From: a virus
IMG/VR virus record: IMGVR_UViG_3300045988_091188
Span: 40,568 to 104,567 of that record
Strand: one strand, 5' to 3'
DNA length: 64,000 bases
How positions within the stretch are numbered: position 1 is the stretch's first letter; the number at the start of each line of letters is the position of its first letter. Below the pieces are notes generated by a model, which saw only the letters and a program-made list of their open reading frames with translations, had not been told where the DNA came from and did no database searches. This document shows positions 35,952-36,068 of the stretch, in pieces. The position numbers were made by a program, and so were the translations under genes.

Positions 35952-36068
35952 GGGGAGTTAGCTCAGTTGGTAGAGCGCGTTATAGTTTGGTCTTGTTAAA
36001 GACCGTAACAGCAATCTTTAACTTGCTTTGGGTGCACGATGTCGCAGGTTCGAGTCCTGCACTCCCCG
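35952..36068 (+). tRNA. tRNA-like gene with a roughly 43-nt insertion between D-arm and T-arm; anticodon unassigned; no encoded CCA
   Basis: Acceptor ggggagt/actcccc (perfect), D-arm gctcagttggtagagc and T-arm gcagg-TTCGAGT-cctgc are canonical, but 66 nt separate them instead of about 23. Internal hairpins ggtctt/aagacc and agcaa/ttgct. Confidence 0.4.

Follow-up and report, generated by a model that had tools for sequence, protein, structure and literature searches.

Does a tRNA gene whose anticodon arm is broken by 44 extra nucleotides give rise to a spliced tRNA, to a tRNA-like RNA that keeps its insert, or to nothing functional? This question is raised by one gene in the tRNA array of a large bacteriophage, at 35952-36068 (+ strand) of the window, the 64,000-nt stretch analyzed here (positions 40,568 to 104,567 of IMG/VR virus record IMGVR_UViG_3300045988_091188). 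Our analyses indicate that the locus is almost certainly a true tRNA gene under selection, with a conserved element interrupting it. On the sequence evidence, the element is probably a mini-intron that depends on protein for its removal, and the mature form would be a tRNA with the proline anticodon UGG. A preliminary description of this DNA had offered an intron-containing tRNA, a tRNA with an extended anticodon arm and a tRNA-derived regulatory RNA as options. The intron is now favoured, as exact removal of the insert restores a tRNA-Pro(UGG) arm and the same element occurs at the same position in other genes; a regulatory or non-decoding role is less likely but keeps some weight because the anticodon loops of the orthologues vary.

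The tRNA body was delimited with Rfam. Family RF00005 (tRNA) matched exactly 35952-36068 on the + strand, with a score of 49.8 bits (gathering threshold 29) over model positions 1-71, so the ends assigned in the preliminary description were exact. CGU and ACG are 55 nt apart in the alignment and 11 nt apart in the model, and ARAGORN in its default bacterial mode did not call the gene. The proposed 5' exon (35952-35980, +), defined by the sequence, the Rfam alignment and covariation of the acceptor and D helices in 15 relatives, comprises the acceptor strand GGGGAGU, U8 and A9, the D arm GCUC-AGUUGGUA-GAGC, G26, and CGU at positions 27-29. The proposed 3' exon (36025-36068, +), defined by the sequence, the Rfam alignment and the junction identity described below, begins with GC (positions 30-31), the anticodon loop UUUGGGU (U33, G37) and GCACG (positions 39-43), and continues with the variable loop AUGUC, the T arm GCAGG-UUCGAGU-CCUGC, the acceptor strand ACUCCCC and the discriminator G. 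All seven pairs of the acceptor stem GGGGAGU/ACUCCCC are present, and the perfect acceptor stem, D arm, T arm and discriminator G noted previously can each be read in the sequence.

The discriminator G at 36068 is followed by the trailer CCG (36069-36071) instead of CCA. CCA follows 28 of the 30 tRNAs that Rfam identifies in the window, the exceptions being this gene and 26567-26639, which bears out the earlier statement that an encoded CCA is standard in the array and missing here. Since the gene ends in CCG, its 3' end would also need trimming and CCA addition. The tRNA at 26567-26639 (+), the sole other Rfam-called tRNA of the array without CCA, is followed by CTA and scores lower than any other tRNA of the window (46.6 bits).

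The insert spans 44 nt (35981-36024, +) and splits the 5' strand of the anticodon stem, after tRNA position 29 and before position 30. Its boundaries can slide by 1 nt, to 35980-36023, owing to a repeated U at both ends. As encoded, the gene has no contiguous 5-bp anticodon stem, since 44 nt separate positions 29 and 30. Deletion of 35981-36024 joins CGU to GC and gives the arm CGUGC-UUUGGGU-GCACG, with 5/5 Watson-Crick pairs and a 7-nt loop that contains U33, G37 and the anticodon UGG (proline) at 36029-36031. The inner two stem pairs and the loop (GC-UUUGGGU-GC, 36025-36035) thus form the last 11 nt of the apparent insert. The preliminary description had counted a 43-nt insertion in the anticodon region above a 3-bp remnant of the stem. 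It had the right arm, but the length is 44 nt, the supposed remnant is the outer three pairs of a complete, split 5-bp stem, and the site was left vague, with position 29/30 and the anticodon UGG overlooked.

Twelve contiguous deletions would leave 11 nt between CGU and ACG, and just one of them (35981-36024) yields a canonical arm. When the 55 nt were shuffled 100,000 times, a canonical arm appeared at any split in 5.9% of the shuffles and at the actual split in 1.2%. The restored arm alone is therefore moderately unlikely to arise by chance, which is suggestive and not decisive; it is the family evidence presented below that makes it decisive. The spliced form would join GAGCGCGU to GCUUUGGG, its 5' side ending in GGUAGAGCGCGU and its 3' side starting with GCUUUGGGUGCACG. 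The 25-mer across this junction, GTAGAGCGCGTGCTTTGGGTGCACG, occurs verbatim in two unrelated, intron-less bacterial tRNA-Pro(TGG) genes of ordinary form on metagenome contigs (L114, 453-526; L115, 103-177), and the metagenome scan for the junction returned unrelated bacterial tRNA-Pro genes only. Comparison of the spliced sequence with 535 ARAGORN-called tRNAs of related loci gave intron-less tRNA-Pro(tgg) genes as the top matches, with alignments that cross the junction. A different solution was proposed by ARAGORN in intron mode, namely a tRNA-Lys(CUU) with a 42-nt intron at 32/33, whose stem needs three G-U pairs and extra bulged bases. This reading was dropped because the 29/30 split pairs perfectly and agrees with real tRNA-Pro genes.

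We next turned to related loci, the comparison that the preliminary description had called for. INPHARED contained no relative of the locus, and no close relative was found among deposited phages. In IMG/VR, the downstream AAA-ATPase gene (36481-37497) identified about 50 contigs of 80-400 kb, and every relative with an AAA protein 56-100% identical has an insert-bearing tRNA gene upstream of it. These orthologues fall into three sequence types (L071/L072, L074-L082 and L083/L084). The same insert is thus retained in orthologues, and it was also found in other tRNA genes. IMG/VR yielded no allele of this gene lineage that lacks the intron, which indicates that the insert is fixed and not a recent lesion. 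It has been kept while the neighbouring AAA protein falls to 56% identity, and compensatory changes have accumulated in both the exons and the insert. A degenerate pattern scan of IMG/VR re-found three already-known contigs along with chance matches in coding sequence.

Further members were sought with a purpose-written cloverleaf scanner, by scanning for the motif, and with a covariance model built on the insert (R1). The family was defined by an insert of 40-50 nt at tRNA position 28-31, a 6-bp hairpin with a G-first loop, the motif CNGCA 5 nt downstream, and restoration of the anticodon arm upon precise removal; the window copy has all of these features. So defined, the family contains at least 20 tRNA genes (Pro, Asn, Ile and Tyr) of related large phages. 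Removal of the insert gives the arm GCGGG-CUGUUAA-CCCGC in two tRNA-Asn genes (L086, 9758-9871; L105, 12494-12605), GCGGA-CUGAUAA-UCCGC in a tRNA-Ile gene (L087, 11021-11132), and GAGGA-CUGUAAA-UCCUC in a class II tRNA-Tyr gene (L086, about 9620-9755). Among tRNA-Pro genes the restored arms are CCGGC-UUGGGGA-GCCGG (anticodon GGG; L102, 16676-16798), CCGGC-UUAGGGA-GCCGG (AGG; L092) and CCGUG-CUUGGGG-CACGG (UGG; L108). A third tRNA-Asn gene (L099, 9744-9857) carries its insert at 28/29. In each of these genes, exact removal restores 5/5 stem pairs and a standard loop. Model R1 scored the window insert, a member of its training set, at 46.3 bits as the sole significant copy in the window, and the L102, L092 and L108 inserts, which lie outside the training set, at 30.8-34.5 bits.

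The position of the insert is nearly constant. In 10 of the 11 gene lineages with readable boundaries it lies at 29/30, and in the other (L099) at 28/29; for the L081 and L079 types, 30/31 and 31/32 fit equally. The flanking sequence varies, with the first exon ending in GCG, CGU, CCG, GAG or CG and the second starting with GC, GG, GA, UG or GUG. As the junctions share no sequence, the position of the insert is set by tRNA structure and not by a sequence target. In a related stretch (L089, 11700-11960), copies of the hairpin GGUCUA...UAGACC followed by CAGCA were observed in spacers between irregular or fragmentary tRNA-like pieces (R1 score, 24.6 bits), and the hairpin/CNGCA module may accompany split or permuted tRNA genes as well.

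The inserts share a common layout, in which an A/U-rich linker of 7-11 nt, usually starting with UA, is followed by a 6-bp hairpin with a loop of 4-6 nt, a single-stranded stretch of 17-25 nt and a tail that is usually U-rich. In the window copy the hairpin is GGUCUU-GUUA-AAGACC (35989-36004, +), identified by covariation and by RNAalifold. Across 14 sequences, 100% of its cells are paired, 5/6 pairs have changed on both sides, and its covariation score was reached by 0/500 shuffles; the variants are GGUCUU/AAGACC, GGUCUA/UAGACC, AGCCUA/UAGGCU, GGUAUA/UAUACC, GGCCUU/AAGGCC and AGACAU/AUGUCU. The first base of the loop is an invariant G. The motif C-N-G-C-A (CAGCA in the window copy, 36009-36013, +, within GUAACAGCAAU) starts 5 nt after the hairpin, and its C, G, C and A are invariant columns in two alignments (A3 and A5) of 14 family members. 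The preliminary description had reported two local hairpins. Both are present, but the first alone is conserved in relatives: the second, AGCAA/UUGCU (36010-36029), which spans the 3' junction, is kept in the closest relatives only, as is a complementarity between GUUAAAGA and UCUUUAAC that could form a pseudoknot. Neither appears in the RNAalifold consensus, and both are lineage-specific. Inspection of the members by eye revealed no conserved pairing between the 5' and 3' ends of the intron, or of the intron with the D or T loops.

The same test was applied to the tRNA body. In the spliced sequences of 15 genes, 99% of the cloverleaf cells are paired and 18/21 pairs have changed on both sides, a result matched by 0/500 shuffles. 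This alignment was built by hand with N padding, and ambiguous genes were given the boundaries that pair best; the choice biases the inner two anticodon-stem pairs toward structure and leaves the outer three pairs and the other helices unaffected. RNAalifold on an independent MAFFT alignment of whole genes recovered the acceptor, D and T arms and the insert hairpin, and nothing else. The cloverleaf of 35952-36068 is far above chance.

These observations suggest how the element might be processed, and we consider it probable from the sequence comparisons that it is removed from the RNA. The transcript can fold as a cloverleaf with the 44-nt arm bulging from the 5' strand of the anticodon stem; this arm bears the 6-bp hairpin, the G-first loop and single-stranded C-N-G-C-A, with both junctions at its base. 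The fixed site relative to the tRNA body, the sequence-free junctions and the conserved hairpin and motif together point to protein recognition of body plus arm. A protein endonuclease could then recognize both and cut the two bulge-helix junctions, possibly with exonucleolytic trimming. The resulting nick in a duplex, splinted by the 39-43 strand, might be healed and sealed by repair enzymes of the kind encoded in the window, namely the P-loop kinase-like protein, metallophosphoesterases, DEDD exonuclease and ATP-dependent RNA ligase. Finally, the CCG end would be trimmed and CCA added. Ligases of the Rnl2 and DraRnl types act preferentially on nicked duplexes, and this preference would explain why the intron is located in a stem.

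Candidate enzymes for the last steps were identified in the window. An ATP-dependent RNA ligase of 423 aa (54098-55369, +) matches PF09414 (RNA_ligase, E = 2e-8) and, weakly, TIGR02306 (DRB0094/DraRnl type); a PDB sequence search with this ligase returned no match. A P-loop kinase domain (61899-62432, +) matches AAA_33 (E = 5e-14), with NCBIfam PSTK and bacter_Pnkp matches far below their cut-offs. A weak RlaP-like nucleotidyltransferase (50588-51391, +; PF10127, 22.1 bits against a cut-off of 23), three metallophosphoesterases (51378-52142, 60257-60988 and 62429-62992, +; PF00149, PF12850), an RNase T-type DEDD exonuclease (52923-53747, +; PF00929) and a Thg1-like enzyme (60969-61835, +; PF04446) were also found. 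The ligase could be the exon joiner, the kinase could heal the 5' end, and the RlaP-like protein, phosphoesterase and exonuclease could serve in trimming or healing; the link between these genes and the intron is permissive, and it seems possible but doubtful that the phage's own ligase set joins the exons. The region 50588-62992 (+) is a dense cluster of RNA-repair and tRNA-end genes, including the Thg1-like 3'-5' polymerase, interleaved with a set for NAD salvage and synthesis that comprises a nicotinamidase-like isochorismatase, a phosphoribosyltransferase-domain protein, NAPRTase and NAD synthase.

Several findings weigh against splicing to a decoding proline tRNA. No splicing endonuclease was detected among about 60 open reading frames of the window scanned with Pfam, and neither a bulge-helix-bulge (BHB) motif nor any sequence common to family members is present at the splice junctions. 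At least 109 related viral stretches carry the ligase, whether or not an intron is known in them; it is clade-wide, and its presence does not discriminate. The anticodon loops of the orthologues are unstable, which is odd for a decoding tRNA: the loop is UUUGGGU here, UUAUGGU in the closest relatives (AAA protein 81% and 80% identical), and UUUUGGG, UCUAGGG, CUUAGGG, GUAUGGG or one 8-nt variant in others. The acceptor end has G1:C72 with G73, where the ordinary tRNA-Pro of the array has C1:G72 with A73, and of 43 tRNA-Pro genes called by ARAGORN in related loci, 40 have C as their first base. The gene lacks an encoded CCA, and the array already holds a normal tRNA-Pro(UGG) with CCA at 34652-34728. 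The features that do speak for proline are the anticodon UGG, G37 and the identity of the junction 25-mer.

The loop variants were also inspected in the orthologues themselves. Among L071 (8942-9061), L072, L074-L082 and L083/L084, the loop differs between close relatives, with UGG replaced by AUG through two adjacent substitutions in some and 1-nt loop insertions or deletions in others, while the helices remain intact. Some orthologue loops are proline-like (UUUGGGA, CUAGGGA, UUAGGGA) solely if the stem has 4 bp. In L079/L081-type orthologues, a 17-nt arm gives UCUAGGG or UUUUGGG, and a 4-bp stem would give the proline-like loops CUAGGGA or UUUGGGA in their place.

The variable loops bear on the idea that the insert is never removed, and that the gene encodes a stable tRNA-like RNA whose scaffold displays the hairpin and CNGCA as a protein ligand, decoy or regulator. 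Such an RNA would account for the drift of the loop in both sequence and length, for the absence of CCA and of a proline-like acceptor end in the window copy, and for the fact that conservation is strongest in the scaffold helices and the insert module; the window also encodes proteins of an RNA-binding type, one that resembles major vault protein and one with DUF2828. Restored arms covering four amino-acid anticodons would, however, be superfluous in a pure scaffold, and at least 10 members have a perfect 5-bp stem, a 7-nt loop, U33 and purine 37 flanking the insert. Many members encode CCA, and the junction sequence is identical to that of real tRNA-Pro genes. We therefore regard retention of the insert as unlikely, though it deserves more weight than any other alternative to splicing. 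The intact tRNA-Pro(UGG) at 34652-34728 is in line with a pseudogene, in which the insertion of a small mobile DNA element would have disabled a tRNA-Pro copy and recent common descent would be the sole source of the apparent conservation. The CCG in place of CCA and the odd AUG anticodon of the closest relatives fit this view. It is hard to reconcile with an insert-bearing gene kept at the same locus down to 56% identity of the neighbour protein, and with the compensatory substitutions that the insert hairpin and the acceptor, T and anticodon stems have all acquired. The element is also present in a single copy per window, with none outside tRNA contexts here and neither terminal inverted repeats nor a target duplication, and we consider a pseudogene improbable.

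Membership of a known intron type is the least credible explanation. Archaeal non-canonical BHB introns, cut by an EndA-like endonuclease, reportedly occur at many positions including the anticodon stem, and group I introns are known in bacterial and phage tRNA genes. Both a BHB intron and a degenerate self-splicing group I intron were considered. All bulge offsets were tested by script in six pre-tRNAs with clear boundaries; the best central helix had 3/4 pairs and there were no flanking helices. This result largely refutes a BHB intron, and the scanned open reading frames contained no EndA/Sen-type endonuclease domain (tRNA_int_endo). A group I intron would be far longer than 44 nt, and when 35900-36120 was scanned permissively with Rfam in E-value mode, the tRNA alone was returned, with no intron family. 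Doubts already expressed in the preliminary description, that the insert is too short for a group I intron and an improbable BHB intron, are thus supported, and we give a known intron type scarcely any credence.

Mobile and regulatory DNA elements were considered separately. A dispersed repeat, a miniature inverted-repeat transposable element or an insertion sequence-derived element was rejected, as searches allowing up to 3 mismatches, the motif scan and the covariance model each located the element just once in the window, and neither terminal inverted repeats nor a target-site duplication could be seen at its boundaries. No terminator or promoter was found inside the insert.

Short interruptions of phage tRNA genes have been described before. 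The tRNA introns of Lak megaphages were called 'enigmatic' (Devoto et al. 2019, Nat Microbiol, PMC6784885), and a 2026 survey reported intronic sequences in tRNAs of recoded jumbo phages (PMC13037316). Lak introns measure 79-114 nt and contain a tRNA-like acceptor/T-arm module; tRNAscan-SE in eukaryotic mode predicted them to lie in the anticodon loop, near 37/38 (Supplementary Table S6, PMC6784885). No study of the mechanism of huge-phage tRNA introns was found in the searchable literature. Like the window element, the Lak introns are short, non-group-I interruptions of the anticodon arm of phage tRNA genes in large arrays, are conserved between phage genomes, and have a short 5' hairpin after a UA start, the one trait common to both inserts. 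In contrast, the window type is about 40-50 nt, lies in the stem at 29/30, has no T-arm-like part and carries its own signature of hairpin, G-first loop and CNGCA; GC content is 34-42% for the window and about 26% for Lak. Nested tRNA-in-tRNA cases resembling the Lak tRNA-Thr also occur in relatives of the window (L105, 7776-7942; L102, 15510-15662). In L105, a complete tRNA-like sequence with a terminal CCA interrupts the anticodon loop of an outer tRNA (Thr UGU) between 34 and 35, and cuts by RNase P and RNase Z would leave ligation-ready ends. A tRNA-Pro(UGG) gene in L110 (11196-11330) has a 60-nt insert at 37/38 whose ends pair (CCAGUU/AACUGG). Several intron types therefore coexist in this phage group.

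Established splicing and repair systems offer partial parallels. Archaeal non-canonical BHB introns are cut by EndA and joined by RtcB. They resemble the window element in being short and protein-spliced (as proposed here), in lying off 37/38, reportedly including the anticodon stem, and in having a structure-defined position; unlike them, the window element has no BHB motif, resides in a virus with a bacterial host and has no EndA homologue visible in the window. Heal-and-seal systems include T4 Pnkp with Rnl1/Rnl2, fungal and plant Trl1, bacterial Pnkp/Hen1 and the DraRnl-type nick ligases. The window encodes an analogous set of kinase-like, phosphoesterase, ligase, Thg1-like and, weakly, RlaP-like proteins, but whereas the known systems repair damage or join exons released by a known endonuclease, the connection between genes and intron is here inferred. 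Group I introns splice themselves, have a length of at least about 200 nt and are built on a conserved P1-P9 core. They have been found in bacterial and phage tRNA genes, for example the cyanobacterial tRNA-Leu(UAA), and in Patescibacteria (PMC13011429). Both they and the window element interrupt the anticodon arm of a bacterial-type tRNA and are missed by standard tRNA finders; the window element differs in its 44-nt length and in matching no Rfam intron family.

To our knowledge, tRNA genes of bacteria and their viruses are treated in textbooks as free of protein-spliced introns, and the accepted bacterial tRNA introns are self-splicing group I or II only. Judged by sequence, the hairpin/CNGCA element looks like an undescribed small kind of tRNA intron, a compact class whose exact boundaries, fixed tRNA position, covarying hairpin and invariant motif make it directly testable. 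As a tentative and rather speculative proposal, large bacteriophages may possess a tRNA-splicing pathway of their own, in which a hairpin/CNGCA stem mini-intron at 29/30 would be excised by an endonuclease, the ends healed and the splinted nick sealed by the phage DraRnl-like ligase. If true, this would be a third protein-dependent tRNA-splicing system beside archaeal and eukaryal BHB/Sen splicing, operating in bacteria, and it might tie phage tRNA maturation to phage enzymes or evade host anticodon nucleases. With such a class in hand, one may ask which activity cleaves at 29/30, whether the exons are joined by the ligase, kinase and phosphoesterase of the phage, and why tRNAs for Pro, Asn, Ile and Tyr are affected. 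Since standard tRNA finders miss such genes, the tRNA complements of large phages, and inferences of codon reassignment made from them, are incomplete.

Other unusual features were observed near the gene. Just 3' of it, at 36072-36100 (+), lies a hairpin CCGG-AGAUACUUUCAUCCG-CCGG that is kept in L004/L005 with the compensatory change CCGA...UCGG; it possibly serves in processing or as a structural part of the spacer. An irregular class II tRNA-like sequence at 36259-36347 (+) has the loop CUGUAAA (GUA, Tyr), a long variable arm, the unusual T loop UGCGAUU and an encoded CCA. It was missed by ARAGORN and the Rfam tRNA model, the tRNA-Sec model alone matched it, at a subthreshold 33.2 bits (threshold 47), and it may be the otherwise missing tRNA-Tyr of the array. 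Adjoining the tRNA array and its tRNA-like oddities, at 45186-49559 (+), is a vault-like pair, in which a 506-aa DUF2828/DUF7788 protein is followed immediately downstream by a protein of 813 aa that contains the repeat and shoulder domains of major vault protein. The window also contains a tmRNA (33083-33398; tag DNDYFENYLAA) and a suppressor tRNA with the anticodon CUA (43808-43883). None of the 18 Pfam-supported genes ends in TAG (TAA, 11; TGA, 7), and the suppressor tRNA together with this lack of TAG stops is compatible with TAG reassignment or avoidance in the phage.

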